Shown piece after piece: positions 3,812 to 25,009 of a stretch of DNA of 64,000 nucleotides. The translations under genes and the position numbers were made by a program. The DNA comes from Escherichia coli (lineage in GTDB: Bacteria; Pseudomonadota; Gammaproteobacteria; Enterobacterales; Enterobacteriaceae), in the NCBI RefSeq assembly GCF_044324875.1, contig NZ_CP172185.1; one strand, written 5' to 3'. The notes beneath the pieces were generated by a model that made no database searches, was not told where the DNA came from, and worked only from the letters and a program-made list of their open reading frames with translations. Positions within the stretch are counted from its first letter, which is position 1. Every line of letters begins with the position of its first letter.

Positions 3812-6607
3812 TTATTTTGGCAATAATACTCCGGTATAGGTATTCACCGGATGAGAAAGATATTGTTTAACGGCAGTGTTAACATTCTCTACCGTCATTT
3901 GTTTCAATAATTGCTCCTGCTCAGTCCATGCTGCAGGATCGTCATATTGAATAAGACTATTTACAATGGTGTTCGCTAATTGTTGAACGCTACGCTGTTG
4001 GATATCGAGGCTGCGCTGAACGTTTTGCTGGTATTCGTTCAGTTCTTGCTCACTGATCCCTTTAGCCAGACGCTTAACCATCACTTCATTCGCTAACGTT
4101 AACAGTTCATCATGTCGTTCCGGTTGACAAGTAAAAGCCAGCAAATGACTGATATCTTTGGCCTGAGGATCAACCGAGAGGCGAGAAGAAACGCTGTATG
4201 CCCCAGAGGCCTGTTCACGAATATTAACGCGTAGATCTTTTGCCAGTGCGACGTTAAAAGCATCGAGCGCCATACGCGTCTCCAGATTAACCGGTGTCCG
4301 GGAATCATAACGCTTCCACTGTGAAACCTGTGCCACAGGTTCATTTTGTTCTTTTACAGTAACCGATGCGTTGTCCGTCGCGCGAGTTAATGGTTTACCT
4401 GCGGCTAATGGCGAATCAGAGTGTTTGATTGATCCTAAGTAAAGCGTAATTAACGGCAGGAGTTTGTCTTCTGCGACATTACCGACAATGACAAACGTGA
4501 TATCCGCTGGAGATGAAAACAACTGGCGATCGGCAGCCAGCGCATCTGCGGCAGTAAACTGTGCAATCTGATTTTCTTGCAGTAATTTCGTGCGGTCATC
4601 AGCATAGCGCGTCTCATACATCTGCTGGGCGAATTTCTCCGCTGGACGCTGGTCGAGCGTTTTCAACGCCTGAATTTGAGCATTTTGTAGCGATGCCCAA
4701 ATATTATCGTTAATCGTGCTGTGGGTGATTCGCTGGTTAATCAACTGGAAACCAGGTTCAGGGTTATTAGTCCGCGCGCTAACAGAGAGCAATGTATTCA
4801 TGCCACTGACTTTACTGCTCAAGGTTACCGAGTTTTCCGCACTCCAGCGTTTCAGGCTGGAAGAGGAGAGTTCACCAACGCCGCTTCCGCTTACTGCTTT
4901 ATTTGCCAGCGCGATAAGTGATTTTTGCTGCGCAGGGAAACTTAAATCGCCTTTATAAGATACGGCAGTAATTTGTAGCTTTTGCTCTTCACCCGCGGAT
5001 TTTGCCAGAATAACCCTGGCACCATTGGAAAGTGTTAATGATGTCAGATTCTCAGCCAGCGTTTCTTTGCTGCTAATTTCCGCCTGTGGGTCAGCGTCTA
5101 CTGTTAACGATAAATTTCTGCCTGGGAAGATGTAAGCCGCCAGCTTTTTGTTGGCGTACTCTTTTTCCAGCGCCAGGATAGCCGCAGGAGACAATGCTTT
5201 TTTGGCAGCAACCTCATTGTTTACCATTTGCTCCCAAAATGCATCCTGGTTCTTTCTTAACTGCTGCCATTTTTCCGCCAGACTTTGCACGGTAATTTGC
5301 TGCCACAGACGTTTCGAAAGTTGATATGTCTCTTCCGGCGACAAGAACGGCGTATTATTTAATGAGCTGGATGCCAGGCGACTGGTCAGCATACGTAAAT
5401 CACGTTCAGCTTGCTGATCAACCGCATTTTTCAGCCAGGTGAGGCGGGTAGATTTGACATCATCGAGTTCTTCAGCAGAAAAACCATGCTGATCAATAGT
5501 TGCCAACTCTGCCATTAATGCATTCGCAGCATCCTGCATATTATCGTCTCGTGCATTTACACGGAAAAACAGCGACTGATAATCGGGTGCAATTTTAACG
5601 CTGCGCGCAGTGCCGCCAGAAATAGTCTTCAACTCGCCCGACTGTATGCGTTCCTGCAGACGCTGATTGAACAGCTGAACCAACATGCTCCATTCAGCTT
5701 GTTCGATAAAGCTTTGCTCATCGCTCACTTGCACCATTGGCAGGCGATAATAGAGTGCGATGCCGTTCACCCGGTTTTCTTTATCATTAATGATATTAAA
5801 GCGCAGGTGGTTTTCGGCTTTTGTCGGCCAGACGCGATTTTCAGCTGCTTTGTTAGCCGGAAGCTTACTTAAATTATCCTTAATCAGCGCCAGCGCTTCT
5901 TTACTGTCGATATCGCCGACCACGATAAAGGTCATATTATTTGGTTGATACCAGCGTTGATAAAATTGGCGCAATTGTGCCGGTGTGACCGTAGCGACAG
6001 TATCCATCACGCCGATAGGTTCACGGTCTAAATTACGGGTATTTGCCAGCAGGAAAGGGCGGCGCGCCTGAGAGGTGCGCCATTTCGCATCCTGATGGGC
6101 ACGCCATTCCTCAGTAATTACGCCGCGTTCAGCGTCTACTTCGAGTTTTTCAAAGCTTGCGGCATTACTCCATTCACTAAAGATTGCCATCACTTGTTGC
6201 AGATTTTGTTTCTGCGTAGTCGGCAAACTCACCTGATACACCGTTTCGTCATAGCTGGTATAGGCATTAACATCGCGACCAAAACGCAGGCCCATTGACT
6301 CAAATGTTTCGATGACTTTATTACCCGGCCATGTTTTTGTGCCGTTAAACATCATATGTTCTACAAAATGAGCCACGCCGCGCTCATTGTCCTCTTCCTG
6401 CAATGAACCGGTATGAATTTGCAGCCATAAATTTACCTGATCCTTTGGTTGAGCATGCGGATAAATCATATATCGCAAGCCATTGTCCAGTTGCCCGGTA
6501 ATTAACTTTTCATCCTGCGGTAAGGCGGCGGCAATCAGTCGCCCGGGGAGCAACAGAGTTGCCACTAACGTCAGTAAGAAACAGAGGTTTCTCATAATTA
6601 TCTCCAT
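3812..6607 (-). CDS. pqqL: periplasmic M16-family zinc metallopeptidase PqqL
   Basis: 936-aa ORF with signal peptide and HFVEHMMF (HxxEH inverzincin) motif; start placed at MEIIMRNL (931 aa) from memory of the K-12 protein; the start is uncertain by a few codons. Confidence 0.9.
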   Translation of the reverse strand: MEIIMRNLCFLLTLVATLLLPGRLIAAALPQDEKLITGQLDNGLRYMIYPHAQPKDQVNLWLQIHTGSLQEEDNERGVAHFVEHMMFNGTKTWPGNKVIETFESMGLRFGRDVNAYTSYDETVYQVSLPTTQKQNLQQVMAIFSEWSNAASFEKLEVDAERGVITEEWRAHQDAKWRTSQARRPFLLANTRNLDREPIGVMDTVATVTPAQLRQFYQRWYQPNNMTFIVVGDIDSKEALALIKDNLSKLPANKAAENRVWPTKAENHLRFNIINDKENRVNGIALYYRLPMVQVSDEQSFIEQAEWSMLVQLFNQRLQERIQSGELKTISGGTARSVKIAPDYQSLFFRVNARDDNMQDAANALMAELATIDQHGFSAEELDDVKSTRLTWLKNAVDQQAERDLRMLTSRLASSSLNNTPFLSPEETYQLSKRLWQQITVQSLAEKWQQLRKNQDAFWEQMVNNEVAAKKALSPAAILALEKEYANKKLAAYIFPGRNLSLTVDADPQAEISSKETLAENLTSLTLSNGARVILAKSAGEEQKLQITAVSYKGDLSFPAQQKSLIALANKAVSGSGVGELSSSSLKRWSAENSVTLSSKVSGMNTLLSVSARTNNPEPGFQLINQRITHSTINDNIWASLQNAQIQALKTLDQRPAEKFAQQMYETRYADDRTKLLQENQIAQFTAADALAADRQLFSSPADITFVIVGNVAEDKLLPLITLYLGSIKHSDSPLAAGKPLTRATDNASVTVKEQNEPVAQVSQWKRYDSRTPVNLETRMALDAFNVALAKDLRVNIREQASGAYSVSSRLSVDPQAKDISHLLAFTCQPERHDELLTLANEVMVKRLAKGISEQELNEYQQNVQRSLDIQQRSVQQLANTIVNSLIQYDDPAAWTEQEQLLKQMTVENVNTAVKQYLSHPVNTYTGVLLPK

Positions 6608-6651
6608 GCGAAAACCGGGCAAATTTACCCGGTTAAGTAAAATCCGAACTA

Positions 6652-9024
6652 TTAAAATTTCATGCTGACATCAAGCCAGAAAGTACGGCCACTGGCGTAG
6701 GTCGCCACACCGGTATTCGTTGTATCAACCGCGGTTTTGCTATCCAGTACATTGAGAATATCGGCACTGATCGTCAGGTTTTGTTGTTTCAGAAATTGTG
6801 GCGTCCAGGACAAGCGGGTGTCCCAGGTCAGGCTGCTATCCAGTTTTTCGTCAACATACTGCTTGTAATCTGAATATTCGCTGATGTATTGCGCATTCGT
6901 CTTACCCAGGATAATGCGAGCTTTACGCGCTTCTTGCCAGGTCAGCGTATTCGCCCACACCAACCCGCTCGGTTGATGCGTGAAATCCATGTTTAAGGAG
7001 ATCTTTAGTGGATTATTAAAATCCGCCACTGGAACGCTATCGTAAGAGACCAGATTACCGTTATAAACCACCCGGTTATCACCGGTATTGCTCTCCTCAT
7101 AACCATTGTTTAACGACAAGTTGCCCTTGCTCTTGATATAGCTAAAGACAATTTGCGGGTTAATATCTACCTGGCTGATATGCAGGGGTTCGGCCAGTTC
7201 AAAACTGAGGTTGAACGAATGCGTTTTGGTTTTGCCGTCGTTGTTATATTCAGTAATGGTGGTTTTAGTCGCGCTGTCGGTACGACTGCTTTTACTGATT
7301 TGATCATGCGCTTCACGATAAACATAGTTTGCACGCGCAATAACGTTCTTACCGATTTTCTGCTGCAACCCCATTGCCAGTTCATCGTTATAAGGCGTTT
7401 TCAAATCCTGATAACGCGTCAGGGTTTTATTGCCTGATACCGATTCCGTCCAGCTATTGCGGATATCACGTAATCCCATATCAAGAATATTCCCGCCATA
7501 GTAACGGTTATAACCTGCGGTAATCATTGAGGTTTGATCAGCAAAAATATCCCATTCCGTCATAAATCGCGGGGAGATATTGTGGTTTGACAGATAGTTG
7601 TCATAGTCATACCGCACACCGGGCATTAACGACACATTCCGCCAGCTAATGCGATCCGCCATATACAGCGTGTAGTTGTCAATTCCCAGACTGCCTTTAC
7701 CTTTATGGTAAATGGTATGGTTAGTTTTCTTTCCTGCAGCATTAATCACATAGGATTCAGACTGGTTATGGCGTTCAGTCCAAGCATCGGAATAGATGTA
7801 TTCCGCGCCGAAGTAGGGTTGATGCGAAACATTACCCACGGTGAATTTTTGCCAGTCCAGGCGTGTTTTGAAGGTGTAATTATCTACAGCCTGGGAAATG
7901 TGTCCTAATCCGCCACGGGTGCAACGCCCTGTAATATCACCATATGTACATGAAAGTTCGGTGTACCAGATGTCATGATCGTGACGGGTATAATCACTAA
8001 TATGATCCCGACCAACGGTGGTACGTAGTTTGGCCCTTGCGAGCTGCGTATCCATATCCCATGCCAGACCGTAGGATTTATTACCCATTTCACGATCAGA
8101 CTGCGGGAAGGTGCTGGTATTATAATCACGACTGGAGCCGGTATATTTTAATGTTAAATCGTGGGTAAAGCGGTCGCTGGCAAACCAGGTAAATTTGCTC
8201 ACTGCGGTATCGATAACGTTTTTATACTGTGCCCGACCGGCGACAATGCCGTCATTCGAAACATAATCCGCGCGGGTGATATCAGACTGGCGGCGCGATA
8301 AACCGGCGGTAACGCCGAAGTTATCAGCCAGTTCCTGATTAAACGACAAGGTATAAAAGTTCTTTTTAAAATCTGGAGAGTAATAAGTACTTCCTGAAGA
8401 ACCTTGATTAAATGCGCTCTTGTTATTCTCATCGATATGCGATGTTAACCAGTCCGAACGCGTAGTGCGATAACCCAGTTTCACGCTGCTATCATCAGCA
8501 TTGAAGCGTTTGATCTTTGCATCAATTACCCCGCCATTGAAGCGACCAAATTCAACCGGCACAAAACTGTCATAAAGCGTCACATTGTCAAGTAAGCTGA
8601 CATCTAGATAATACCCCTGTGACATCCCGCTAATATTGGTTGCACTACTGGCATCGGACTCATTCGCTGGGTTCAGGTTATTAGTTGCACTAATACCATC
8701 AATCAAATAGGCATTCTGGTAGGGCGACGCACCGTGAATAGAGATTTTCTCAGGGCGAATATCTCCCTGGTTCAATGAGGTACTTTGCGTTGAATCCATG
8801 CGTACCGCAGGGTTGGTTCTCAGCAGATCGCTGATATTGCCATTCCCGGTCGGTAAACGCTCGATGCTTTCACTGGTGTAATGCGTGTTGCCGTTTACGG
8901 GTACAGGGACAGGAGCATAGACCGTCATCTCTTCAAAAACATGCATGTACATGTTTTTGTCATCGACGGCCTGCGCCACATCAGCGCCACATAAAATGAC
9001 GCCAGGAATAAGAACTCGCTTCAT
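6652..9024 (-). CDS. yddB: TonB-dependent outer-membrane receptor YddB
   Basis: 790-aa ORF with signal peptide, N-terminal plug region and C-terminal beta-barrel ending in a terminal aromatic residue (MKF); sits between yddA and pqqL as in K-12. Confidence 0.9.
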   Translation of the reverse strand: MKRVLIPGVILCGADVAQAVDDKNMYMHVFEEMTVYAPVPVPVNGNTHYTSESIERLPTGNGNISDLLRTNPAVRMDSTQSTSLNQGDIRPEKISIHGASPYQNAYLIDGISATNNLNPANESDASSATNISGMSQGYYLDVSLLDNVTLYDSFVPVEFGRFNGGVIDAKIKRFNADDSSVKLGYRTTRSDWLTSHIDENNKSAFNQGSSGSTYYSPDFKKNFYTLSFNQELADNFGVTAGLSRRQSDITRADYVSNDGIVAGRAQYKNVIDTAVSKFTWFASDRFTHDLTLKYTGSSRDYNTSTFPQSDREMGNKSYGLAWDMDTQLARAKLRTTVGRDHISDYTRHDHDIWYTELSCTYGDITGRCTRGGLGHISQAVDNYTFKTRLDWQKFTVGNVSHQPYFGAEYIYSDAWTERHNQSESYVINAAGKKTNHTIYHKGKGSLGIDNYTLYMADRISWRNVSLMPGVRYDYDNYLSNHNISPRFMTEWDIFADQTSMITAGYNRYYGGNILDMGLRDIRNSWTESVSGNKTLTRYQDLKTPYNDELAMGLQQKIGKNVIARANYVYREAHDQISKSSRTDSATKTTITEYNNDGKTKTHSFNLSFELAEPLHISQVDINPQIVFSYIKSKGNLSLNNGYEESNTGDNRVVYNGNLVSYDSVPVADFNNPLKISLNMDFTHQPSGLVWANTLTWQEARKARIILGKTNAQYISEYSDYKQYVDEKLDSSLTWDTRLSWTPQFLKQQNLTISADILNVLDSKTAVDTTNTGVATYASGRTFWLDVSMKF

Positions 9025-9061: not shown

Positions 9062-10747
9062 TTATAAAACCGCGCTAATGTCACAAATATCATCAGCCAG
9101 GTTCCAGACACCGGGTTGATGTGTAACCATAATGACGCCGCTTGTGGGTAGTTTTTCACGCACTAAACGCAGTAAGCGGATAGCCTCTTGTTCCTCAAGA
9201 TGAGAGGTAGTTTCGTCAAGAAATATCCATTTCGGACGTCGTAAAATTAATCGTGCCAGGGCGATACGTTGTTTTTCGCCGCTGGAAAGAATATCTCCCC
9301 AGCGATCGTGGTCATGAATACGCGCAGCCAATTTCCCCAGACCAACCTGATGCAGTATTTCGCTCAACGATTTATCGTCTACGGGCAGGGGAAGTGCTTT
9401 ACAAATAATCTCTTTCAGTAAGCCGGTTTTGATTAACGGTGTTTGTGACACATACCAACTGTCAGCAGGAGAAGAAATATCACCTTTGAACCACGGCCAG
9501 CAGTGGGATAATGTTTTAAGCAGTGTGGTTTTTCCCGCACCAGAGTAACCTTTCAGTAATAGCCATTTGCCTGGCGAAACATGAAAGTTCAGGTTCTCTA
9601 ATATGATCTTATTATCAGGAGTACGAATACTCGCGTCAGCCACTTGTACCGCATGTTGGCAATTTTTAGGCTTATTCGTAGGGCGCTGTTCGGTGAGTTG
9701 ATGGAACTCATACAAACGATCGATAACAGCAGCCAGTTCAGCAAGTTCGTCATATTTATAAATAAACCAGCTTAAATTGTTCGATACCAGCATAAATGCC
9801 TGGCGCGATTTCATCAGTCCGCCCAGATTGATCTGTCCGCTAATAAACTGTGGCAATAACAGAAAGTAGGGAAGAACGCTAAGCGAGCGCGAATAAATAT
9901 TCTGCCAGTAATCAAGCCAGCGCTGACGATTCATTAAACGATGCCAGTTCTCTTTAATGGTATGAAAATTGTCGCTCAACTCCTGGCGTTGTAAAGACTC
10001 AGCATTGCTTAGCGCAATCAGTTCTGCCTGCTTATTATGCTGCACAAGATTAGTTCGAAATGTCGCTTCGCTACGTTGTTTTTCCACATTAAGCGGACGA
10101 ATACGTTTACCAACCTTATGAGTAAATAAAGTTCCACCGATCACAATGAGCACAACGGTATAGACCATATACCCCTGGATATTCCATTCTGTTCCACCAA
10201 CAGTGAATGAGAGCGTACCCGCGCTTTGCCAAAGAATAACGGTAAAGGTGATCAACATGCTAAGTGACTGGATGAAGCCAAATGAAAGACTGAGCGTTTT
10301 GCTGATCAGTAAGAGAATGTCTTCAGCGATACGTTGGTCAGGGTTATCTGTATTTTTATGCTCACCGTAGATCTGCGTGAAGTAGTAGTTTTTATCTGCA
10401 AACCAGCGATTAAGGTAGTAATCTGTTAACCATTCGCGCCAGCGAATAGTCAGTAGTTTAATTAACCATGTTTTGTTTACGGATATTAATACAAAGATCC
10501 CCAGCAGGGCAGGGAACCAAAGAACAAGCTGCCAAAGCTTATCGGTTTCTTTCTGGCTTAGCGCATTGAAAAAATCATTATTCCAGTCGTTTAACCAGAC
10601 CTGAATTTTAACCACGCCAAGGATCATGGCGAGGATAATAATGATTAACAACACTGAAGTTTTATTATTCTTACGCAGCCAAAAGGGCTTCAGCAGACAG
10701 AGATACTTTGCTATCAACATACGAAACGTAATGGGAATGGTTATCAT
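9062..10747 (-). CDS. yddA: fused permease-ATPase ABC transporter YddA
   Basis: 561-aa ORF; N-terminal transmembrane domain, Walker A GYSGAGKTT and ABC signature LSSGEKQR in the C-terminal half. Confidence 0.9.
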   Translation of the reverse strand: MITIPITFRMLIAKYLCLLKPFWLRKNNKTSVLLIIIILAMILGVVKIQVWLNDWNNDFFNALSQKETDKLWQLVLWFPALLGIFVLISVNKTWLIKLLTIRWREWLTDYYLNRWFADKNYYFTQIYGEHKNTDNPDQRIAEDILLLISKTLSLSFGFIQSLSMLITFTVILWQSAGTLSFTVGGTEWNIQGYMVYTVVLIVIGGTLFTHKVGKRIRPLNVEKQRSEATFRTNLVQHNKQAELIALSNAESLQRQELSDNFHTIKENWHRLMNRQRWLDYWQNIYSRSLSVLPYFLLLPQFISGQINLGGLMKSRQAFMLVSNNLSWFIYKYDELAELAAVIDRLYEFHQLTEQRPTNKPKNCQHAVQVADASIRTPDNKIILENLNFHVSPGKWLLLKGYSGAGKTTLLKTLSHCWPWFKGDISSPADSWYVSQTPLIKTGLLKEIICKALPLPVDDKSLSEILHQVGLGKLAARIHDHDRWGDILSSGEKQRIALARLILRRPKWIFLDETTSHLEEQEAIRLLRLVREKLPTSGVIMVTHQPGVWNLADDICDISAVL

Positions 10748-11037
10748 TAGCGAAAATTGATTGTGCCATCCAATGATTATCTATGGCAATGATTTACTGA
10801 TGAAATTTATTTAAGTATCCTTTAACAATATGAAATATAAAGGAATATTTCATTTTCAGTGGTTATGGTTATGCTATTGATAATCAAGGATATTGCTAAT
10901 GCCCTGACGCATACCACGTAAGCCAGGATTTTCGCAAGGGAAGATGATGATGACGAAACACCCGACAGGAATATGTGTCGGGTGCATTGTTAAGGTCATA
11001 AGAAGGAGGCTAAGACTGGAGCTAAGAGGGAGCGTTA

Positions 11038-12195
11038 TTAATTATTCTCCATTTGTTTTGCAACATCCATGATGTGGTAAAGCGGTACTCTGTTCTTAGC
11101 TAACTCCACCATGGCGTTCATATAAGGTACCATGGTTGAAAAAAGGATTTTATAACCTTCGCAAAAATAAGAAACAGTCTCATTGTTTACTTTAGTAATA
11201 CGATGCTTAGGACAACCGCCATTGCAGATAGGTTTATATGCACATTGCTGACATTTCGCTGAAATCCGTTTTTTTTGCGCTGTCAGTTGTACACTGTTCA
11301 TTGTTTTGAGTTCAGATTTATTAATGTTTCCAATTTTGTACTGTGGATAGACAAAATGGTCGCATTCGTAAATGTCTCCATTACTTTCAACAACCAGATT
11401 ATCCTTGCAGGACTCCTGGAAAATACAACTGGTATGCCCATTCCCCAAAAAACGGCTGACAAAGCTTTCAAACTGACGGATGAAAATTTCACCCACATCG
11501 TTTTTAACCCATTGCATAAAAATGGTTGACATAAACTTGCCATAAGCCGTAGGAGGCACAGAAAAATCAATGATACGGAATGTGTTCTCACTATGACCAC
11601 TGAAATCAATATTCGGCGTCCCGGTTTCGAGCAATTCGATAAATTGCATATGTTTACTGCCGATAGATTTTAAAAAATGATAAACCTCAAGAGGGTAATG
11701 GACATTAATGTTATTAATGACGGTTAACGTATTAAACTCTACTTGATATGATTTCAGACGCTCGATGGCTGCTATCACTTTTGCAAAAGTACCGTTACCA
11801 GAATTACTGCGTCTGTAACGGTCATGTAGCTCCTGGGGTCCATCGATCGAGATACCAACCAGAAACTCATGTTCTTTGAGAAAGGCACACCATTCATTAT
11901 TCAATAAAATGCCATTCGTTTGTAATGCATTAAAAATACGTTTTTGGCCTGCATAGCGTTGTTGATAGTGAATAACTTTACGGAAAAAATCCAGACCAGC
12001 CAGAGTGGGTTCACCGCCTTGCCACGTAAAATAGACCTGATTGCCAGACGCTGCGATATATTGTTTGATGAACTCTTTCAGAGTGCTGTCATCCATCCAT
12101 TTTTCATGAGTAAACTGCGACTCTTTTTCAAGGTAAAAACAGTAATCACATTTGAGATTACATTGAAAACTGGAGGGCTTGGCTGTAACGTGCAT
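11038..12195 (-). CDS. ydeM: radical-SAM anaerobic sulfatase-maturating enzyme homolog YdeM
   Basis: [10 protein letters not shown] (CxxxCxxC radical SAM cluster motif) near the N-terminus plus C-terminal Cys-rich region; ORF track start 12210, start MHVTAKPSS at 12195 preferred (385 aa). Confidence 0.88.
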
Positions 12196-24012: not shown

Positions 24013-24576
24013 TTATAGATATTGAACTTTGAAGGTCGCATCAGCGTTTGCAGTACCAGCTACTGACTGCCCGAGAGCAATATATCGAGCCTGGAACGGC
24101 AATATATTCGTGCCATCAATCAAGTCAGTTTTAGCACTAAAAGTGGCACCATCAAGTATTAATACCTCACCCGTACGGTCCAAAATTTGAATACCGACAT
24201 TTTGGGCAGAGCCTGCCGCTGAACTCTGAAGCGCTAATGTGTCGTCATTACTGGTGACAGTAGTACCCAGGAATGCAACAGCTGCATTACTGGAAACATT
24301 GGTATCACAATCATTCAGCTTGATATTGAAGCCAACGGCGGAGCTGAGGTCACCCGCTTTAGCCAGACGAGAAGAACGGACCTGACCCAGCTCAACCGTT
24401 TGGTTCATTGATTCTGAATCAATCGCACAAGCGGCATTTACCACTTCACCTTTAAAATGAATAACACCGCCATTAACAGTGGTCGTTACTGATTCATCAC
24501 CCTCGGCTGCGCTTACCGCAGCAGACGACATCGCCAACACAGAAACGACAATCATACCGACATGTTTGAGTTTCAT
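24013..24576 (-). CDS. major fimbrial subunit (FimA-like, F9-type)
   Basis: ORF track start 24624; start [23 protein letters not shown] at 24576 preferred (signal peptide, GGAG RBS upstream); C-terminal ...TFKVQYL pilin strand. Confidence 0.85.
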
Positions 24577-25009
24577 AATTCTCCAAAATTTATATTTAAG
24601 TAGCTGAATAAAGAAAGTTAACAATTAAGTCATTCTGTTATTGCTTATAAAACAAGAATCATTCTTGATGGGATATTGCCCTGAGAATATAGTTTCCAGG
24701 GTTATTACATTTCACGAAGAACGATAATATCTTTAAATTACAAGGACACCTAATCACAACAAGTTTATTGCAGCACTTGTTGTAGAGAGTATTTGCAAAG
24801 ACATTTTATGTCGCTAAATAACATTACGATTTCATTATGCATGTTATTTATAAACAGCGACTAAACAGAATATTATTGCGAACAAGGGAAGTGTCAGGAA
24901 AGGTCAAGAGCGGCCAATGGTTTATATGGCTATAAAACATTAGCTATGGTTAATGTTTGCCTGGTGTAACTAACACGGAATTGCTCTAAACAGATAAGTG
25001 CAGGGTTTA

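Follow-up and report, generated by a model that had tools for sequence, protein, structure and literature searches.

Placement of the Fur operator of the Escherichia coli yddA-yddB-pqqL operon relative to a direct repeat in the yddA leader

Described import systems and Fur control of the operon

Fus ferredoxin uptake belongs to a family of protease-associated import systems defined by Grinter 2019 (PMC6793856), and the yddA-yddB-pqqL operon of E. coli has been described as a member of the same family. Both possess a FusA-like TonB-dependent receptor (YddB in E. coli), a FusC-like M16 protease (PqqL), an inner-membrane transporter, and iron/Fur regulation. A difference from Fus is that the E. 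coli transporter, YddA, is a type IV ABC protein related to SbmA/BacA. The fold of YddA is of the exporter type (type IV), but the protein belongs to a functionally unassigned clade related to SbmA, BacA, and BclA, and relatives of that clade import peptides (PMC13316013); the name “ABC exporter” given to it in an earlier, sequence-only reading of the locus is therefore not established. The yddAB-pqqL operon contributes to fitness in uropathogenic E. coli and putatively encodes a system for protein import, and deletion of yddB or pqqL leaves growth unimpaired under iron limitation in LB (Grinter 2019, PMC6793856).

The window analyzed here, a 64-kb stretch of DNA, is E. coli chromosome, and the locus within it is 100% identical to that of strain TUM1886 and is carried by ~5,350 of 5,426 complete genomes. 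Gene order is ydeN-ydeM followed by yddA-yddB-pqqL, all on the minus strand. As annotated, yddA (9062-10747; 561 amino acids; the A of the annotated ATG is 10747) encodes an SbmA/BacA-like transmembrane domain and an ABC ATPase (Pfam ABC_membrane_2/SbmA_BacA and ABC_tran), yddB (6652-9024) the FusA-like TonB-dependent receptor (Pfam Plug), and pqqL (3812-6622) the FusC-like periplasmic M16 protease (Pfam Peptidase_M16 and M16_C). The listed pqqL open reading frame begins with TTG, and the start codon may be internal to it. Pfam thus agrees with the gene content proposed from the letters alone, and genes for receptor, protease, and inner-membrane transporter are adjacent, in keeping with the protease-associated arrangement that the sequence-only reading had pointed to. 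The small-protein gene yneP (10950-11072, plus strand) lies within the ydeM-yddA spacer and overlaps the end of ydeM; yddA and yneP are divergent, and the leader at 10748-10949 is therefore a divergent promoter region. A hairpin after ydeM (CACCCGACA-8 nt-TGTCGGGTG; 10959-10984, minus strand), read directly from the sequence, may terminate ydeM transcription and would then insulate the yddA promoter; it was missed by the terminator scan because its T-run is short. Separately, a contig labeled as a “Candidatus Nanosynbacter sp.” metagenome-assembled genome (JARKOR010000108.1) includes a ydeM-yddA region with 99% identity to that of E. coli and is almost certainly a binning contaminant.

The operon is an established direct Fur target, and its regulation is well documented and already known. 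ChIP and expression data support direct Fur repression, and the operon RNA level is raised by RyhB (Beauchene 2015, PMC4676285). Derepression is ~52-fold in a CFT073 fur mutant (Banerjee 2020, PMC7157518) and spans log2 values of 1.9 to 6.9 across eight strains (Gao 2023, PMC10164565), and PqqL protein increases under iron chelation (Grinter 2019, PMC6793856). In CFT073 the operon is more than 30-fold up in urine and is derepressed in a fur mutant, but dipyridyl alone gives no induction (Subashchandrabose 2013), and regulation is therefore not purely iron. These reports (Beauchene 2015; Banerjee 2020; Gao 2023; Subashchandrabose 2013) bear out iron and Fur control of the operon, as proposed earlier; the direct repeat to which that control was assigned, at 10771-10795, scores 5.8 bits and lies away from the Fur positions found by ChIP. 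The regulatory idea is right for the locus and was attached to the wrong sequence.

Classical Fur boxes (fhuA, entC, fepA-fes, sodA, ryhB, and fecI, all among the 20 training sites used below) share their 19-bp architecture, overlapping sites 6 bp apart, and score range with the yddA operator. Whereas the classical boxes lie over promoters, the strong yddA box follows the sequence that most resembles a promoter, at a predicted position of about +0 to +24. The cluster at 10730-10754 is already published as the yddA Fur box, and the matrix used here reproduces a known site. ChIP-exo work by Seo from 2014 is reportedly also among the sources for this site. Chen 2007 (NAR) described at yddA a 25-bp cluster of two walkers with 19.6 bits, whose centre is at “+8” and which overlaps the start of translation; it was grouped with fepD-entS and fecA as lying downstream of a predicted sigma-70 promoter and ahead of the start codon. 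Subashchandrabose 2013 (PLoS Pathog) printed the yddA Fur box as GGGAATGGTTATCATTAG (plus strand), and a Fur box at yddA was likewise found by Huja 2014. The locus, regulator, and operon of the published box (Chen 2007; Subashchandrabose 2013; ChIP-exo of Gao 2023) are the same as those considered here, but the 25-mer singled out by the sequence-only reading differs, as it lies outside the published box, the 25-bp predicted cluster, and the ChIP-exo-protected interval. What is added here is the precise placement of the operator at 10730-10754 and not in the upstream repeat, evidence that the first nine annotated codons of yddA are probably noncoding (in which case the operator moves into the 5' leader), and a link between a second ChIP-exo peak and an intragenic Fur-like box. 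These points are of use for promoter-fusion design and for reannotation of yddA, and leave the understanding of the system unchanged.

The Fur operator at the annotated start codon

A symmetrised 19-bp Fur matrix was built from 20 established MG1655 operators, with yddA left out. Operator centres were taken from Table 4 of Chen 2007 and reconciled base-for-base with the gene starts of NC_000913.3, and leave-one-out scores of the training sites ranged from 15.1 to 27.1 bits. Matches were also counted against the classical 19-bp Fur consensus (GATAATGATAATCATTATC; a 7-1-7 inverted repeat). The top matrix site of the 64 kb is centred at 10739 (AATGATAACCATTCCCATT on the yddA strand), with 19.6 bits, a score found in 0.15% of shuffles (P = 0.0015), and with 15/19 consensus matches, the joint best of the window. 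With an overlapping site centred at 10745 (7.4 bits), it forms two 19-mers 6 bp apart at 10730-10754 on the minus strand, over the annotated start codon and ~45 bp downstream of the flagged repeat.

Occupancy in vivo was taken from the ChIP-exo peaks in the supplement of Gao 2023 (PMC10164565), the box being located in the RefSeq record of each strain. The midpoints of the 13-bp peaks of W3110, CFT073, 042, ATCC 8739, and BL21(DE3) fall 3 to 5 bp from the centre of the 10739 box; the middle of the flagged repeat is 47 to 49 bp away from them. The MG1655 peak P47 corresponds to window positions 10728-10755 and agrees with the predicted cluster within 2 bp; this protected interval stops 16 bp short of the repeat. 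The published data thus place Fur on the cluster and not on the repeat, and the comparison with ChIP data that the sequence-only reading had proposed goes against the repeat; at ChIP-exo resolution, weak or transient contacts with the repeat could be missed. A second MG1655 peak assigned to yddA, P46, corresponds to 10614-10648. In CFT073, a Fur ChIP-seq peak was placed 1 bp from the yddA ATG (Banerjee 2020, PMC7157518). The Sakai ChIP-exo peak was excluded: in NC_002695.2 its coordinates fall at +141 to +153, and the paper apparently used an older version of that record.

The MG1655 sheet of Dataset 2 of Gao 2023 (PMC10164565) has gene and transcription unit labels one row off from about P37 onward, such that a peak at 1309 kb is labeled acnA and the yddA rows are labeled adhP/yddA. 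The labels being displaced, coordinates were used instead.

Conservation was followed in an alignment of 14 Escherichia sequences, three cryptic-clade genomes among them. Across the 14 sequences, the 10739 box keeps 19.2 to 19.6 bits, with 19.6 bits in every E. coli; Escherichia sp. E1V33 retains 19.2 bits despite three substitutions at the centre. The cluster at 10730-10754 therefore combines sequence match, occupancy in vivo, conservation, and Fur-dependent expression downstream, and this 25-bp cluster, not the flagged repeat, is the yddA Fur operator.

The direct repeat at 10771-10795 and the predicted yddA promoter

The plus strand at 10771-10795 reads CAATGATTATCTATGGCAATGATTT (AAATCATTGCCATAGATAATCATTG on the yddA-sense strand) and contains two exact copies of CAATGATT, at 10771-10778 and 10787-10794, with a start-to-start distance of 16 bp. 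The 25-mer occupies positions -24 to -48 relative to the annotated yddA ATG. Both copies, and their placement 24 to 48 bp upstream of yddA, are exactly as the sequence-only reading gave them; the likeness to a hexamer array is not, since copies spaced by 16 bp do not fall into the 6-bp phase of Fur hexamers. Fur-like words in the repeat comprise two AATCATT cores and one perfect GATAAT (10781-10776), whose neighbors match 2/6 as GATAAT and at most 4/6 as inverted ATTATC, leaving the repeat short of three NATWAT-type hexamers in 6-bp register. Such words are what AT-rich promoter DNA often contains. The 213-nt leader holds one 8-mer direct repeat versus 0.19 expected in dinucleotide shuffles, and CAATGATT occurs six times in the 64-kb window versus 4.1 ± 2.1 expected. 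The repeat is real as sequence and statistically unremarkable, no more than chance.

When the repeat is scored with the Fur matrix, as had been suggested with the original claim, its best 19-mer (10772-10790, centre 10781) reaches 5.8 bits, versus at least 15 bits for each of the 20 training sites, and ranks 24th in the window. When the proximal 61 nt are shuffled, a site of at least 5.8 bits turns up in 18% of cases, and when the whole 213-nt leader is shuffled, in 35%; the 12/19 consensus matches of the repeat are a level reached by ~170 site-strand matches within the window. An RNA element in the leader was considered and rejected: an Rfam scan of the leader returned just one sub-threshold chance match (27 bits versus a gathering score of 60).

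The flagged stretch coincides with promoter-like sequence. On the yddA strand, two scans gave as top promoter-like match TTGCCA-18-TGgCACAAT (10789-10760), with 9/12 hexamer matches plus TG and a spacing within the 16 to 18 nt of sigma-70 promoters. Its -35-like hexamer TTGCCA (10784-10789, minus strand) lies inside the repeat, and its TG-extended -10-like element TGgCACAAT occupies 10760-10768 on the same strand (CACAAT, 10765-10760). Both are invariant in the 14 Escherichia sequences, while the spacer drifts, with changes at 10780, 10779, and 10771-10769. Promoter-like matches in the region number two versus 2.3 expected in shuffles, and weaker alternatives are TTCATC-17-GATAAT (8/12) and TTGGAT-16-GCTAAT (read by eye). 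The Cappable-seq supplements (Ettwiller 2016), searched for a mapped transcription start site, gave no coordinate near the yddA locus. From its position and conserved hexamers, the flagged stretch most probably carries the -35 hexamer of the yddA promoter together with the greater part of its 18-nt spacer, with a transcription start predicted near 10753. This promoter assignment is the weak step of the whole explanation. A role of the repeat itself as -10 element, through its GATAAT with TTCATC 17 nt away, was set aside and is kept as an alternative only, since its 8/12 falls short of the TTGCCA/CACAAT match and sister clades have lost the hexamer.

Given iron, Fe2+-Fur dimers fill 10730-10754 and repress yddA-yddB-pqqL; derepression in a fur mutant and the rise of PqqL under chelation are both shown in the literature. 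The TTGCCA/CACAAT core promoter, of which the flagged 25-mer would form part, would be under the control of the adjoining operator. With transcription starting near 10753, bound Fur would cover about +0 to +24, inside the footprint of RNA polymerase, and would block open-complex formation or promoter escape. Taken as a whole, operator and promoter together, this explanation is moderately probable.

All 14 Escherichia sequences have the 25-mer, which shows substitutions at 10794, 10780, 10779, and 10771 and belongs to a block from about 10727 to 10815 that is far better conserved than the spacer upstream: within 10755-10815, ~10 of 61 columns vary, versus ~60% of columns farther upstream. Conservation of this block would fit a promoter, an extended operator, or both. 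Extended Fur operators are known, for example at the aerobactin promoter. One alternative is accordingly that the repeat is an auxiliary low-affinity Fur site, in which Fur would first load onto 10730-10754 and, when Fur-Fe2+ is abundant, spread upstream over the repeat in steps of 6 bp, occluding the -35 and deepening repression. The same combination of a strong nucleating site with weaker, in-register AT-rich hexamers is found at the aerobactin iucA promoter and in the fhuF low-affinity region. The arrangement of the leader agrees with this in part. Centre 10781, with its positive score, is separated from 10739 by 42 bp (7 x 6, ~4 helical turns), the perfect GATAAT shares the 6-bp register of the operator hexamers and lies 30 bp upstream of them, ATTTTC at 10757-10752 matches ATTATC at 5/6, and the leader holds three sites of at least 4.5 bits, as do 3% of shuffles; the repeat is within the conserved proximal block, and repression is very deep (50-fold or more). 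However, a register match has a 1-in-6 prior and was noticed post hoc, the score of 5.8 bits is readily equaled in shuffles, and hexamers between 10775 and 10758 are poor (0 to 2 of 6). Extension at iucA and fhuF was shown by footprinting, whereas ChIP-exo at yddA shows none, the MG1655 interval ending at 10755 and the midpoints of the five other strains lying on the main box. In addition, MOD1-EC7003 has GACAAT in place of GATAAT, which brings the site at the repeat down to 2.0 bits, and E1V33 has GTCAAT, with -2.4 bits, so that the motif is not maintained in two Escherichia clades in which the main box keeps its score. An auxiliary site is unlikely on this balance.

The repeat could instead be a chance AT-rich feature of no specific role, conserved merely through the close kinship of Escherichia strains. 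Its copy number and matrix score are within chance expectation, and neither an Rfam family nor another signal was found there, but kinship alone sits poorly with the contrast in variability between 10755-10815 and the upstream spacer and with the invariance of the promoter-like hexamers, which makes this reading improbable. It is more improbable still, indeed very much so, that the repeat is bound by some other regulator, acting on yddA or on yneP in the opposite direction. The response of CFT073 to urine and to fur deletion and not to dipyridyl alone (Subashchandrabose 2013), the effect of RyhB (Beauchene 2015, PMC4676285), and the conservation of a direct repeat within divergently oriented promoter DNA would be in line with such a factor; the repeat matched no known motif, however, and an 8-mer direct repeat at 16 bp is within chance. 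As the primary Fur site, finally, the repeat is already effectively refuted: the operon is Fur-repressed and the repeat does include GATAATCATT, ten contiguous consensus bases, but it is outscored by the adjoining box (5.8 versus 19.6 bits; 12/19 versus 15/19), its 16-bp spacing is incompatible with a 6-bp hexamer array, Fur maps 47 to 49 bp away, the motif is lost in sister clades, and the published Fur box is another sequence.

The yddA start codon, orthologs, and other Fur-like sites

Codons 1 to 9 of annotated yddA (10721-10747), which overlap the operator, contain no synonymous and four nonsynonymous variable codons in 13 Escherichia sequences, versus 20 synonymous and two nonsynonymous in codons 10 to 64 (Fisher p = 0.001). 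The protein of a 52%-identical ortholog begins at the equivalent of Met10, and in the Sakai RefSeq record yddA is annotated from Met10. On this evidence the true start of yddA is probably Met10 (ATG at 10720-10718), and the first nine annotated codons would not be coding. A start at Met10 would place the main Fur box at -28 to -10, in the leader, and the flagged repeat at -51 to -75.

Material for cross-genus footprinting consisted of five Escherichia-level loci, the 52% ortholog, from an Enterobacteriaceae metagenome-assembled genome, and a 30% relative from Neisseria. The ortholog operon has the same three genes, and its upstream DNA is unalignable with the yddA leader; yddA is narrowly distributed, and a base-by-base footprint of the repeat is therefore confined to Escherichia. 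Unlike E. coli yddA, the ortholog has the classical arrangement, with a Fur cluster (22.8 and 14.3 bits) over the -35 and spacer of its own best promoter-like match, 52 bp upstream of the ATG.

In the Neisseria wadsworthii relative (4330-8554 of the stretch examined), a TonB-dependent receptor gene (4411-6630) has a 20.8-bit Fur site 72 bp ahead of it and a YddA-like SbmA/BacA-type ABC gene (6722-8554) directly after it. A distant genus thus shows the same pairing of receptor and transporter downstream of a Fur-type box, with no adjacent M16 protease gene in that stretch.

Within yddA, a secondary Fur-like box at 10634-10652 (centre 10643) scores 7.3 bits, with 14/19 consensus matches in the 10631-10649 register. 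It overlaps the MG1655 ChIP-exo peak P46 and scores 10.7 to 13.3 bits in cryptic-clade Escherichia. A start at Met10, the operator at about +0 to +24 of a promoter with its -35 and spacer in the repeat, a low-affinity extension of GATAAT and AATCATT words over the -35, and the box at 10634-10652 would together make a three-part Fur operator of ~160 bp; that all of these hold jointly is rather unlikely. Farther upstream, a weak Fur-like pair at 10870-10894 has centres at 10879 (5.8 bits) and 10885 (4.5 bits), with no ChIP peak reported.

The divergent spacer has further features. A plus-strand promoter-like match, TTAACA-16-AATATT, is located at 10822-10849, and the weak Fur-like centres at 10879 and 10885 lie between it and yneP. 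A 12-nt inverted repeat with a 6-nt gap, AATATGAAATAT / ATATTTCATTTT, occupies 10827-10838 and 10845-10856; it was set aside as a candidate regulator site, its left arm not being conserved in E1V33.

Elsewhere in the window, high matrix scores inside coding regions occur at centres 11175 (15.1 bits; ydeM) and 35852 (12.3 bits; a 413-amino-acid open reading frame), for which no ChIP peak is listed and which are therefore possibly chance matches. A 14.4-bit Fur site centred at 24660 (19-mer at 24651-24669) lies ~36 bp upstream of a fimA-like fimbrial major-subunit gene (24013-24624, minus strand), and its 13.9-kb offset from the yddA peak is that of the ChIP-exo peaks labeled “fimA, intergenic” in strains W and Sakai.
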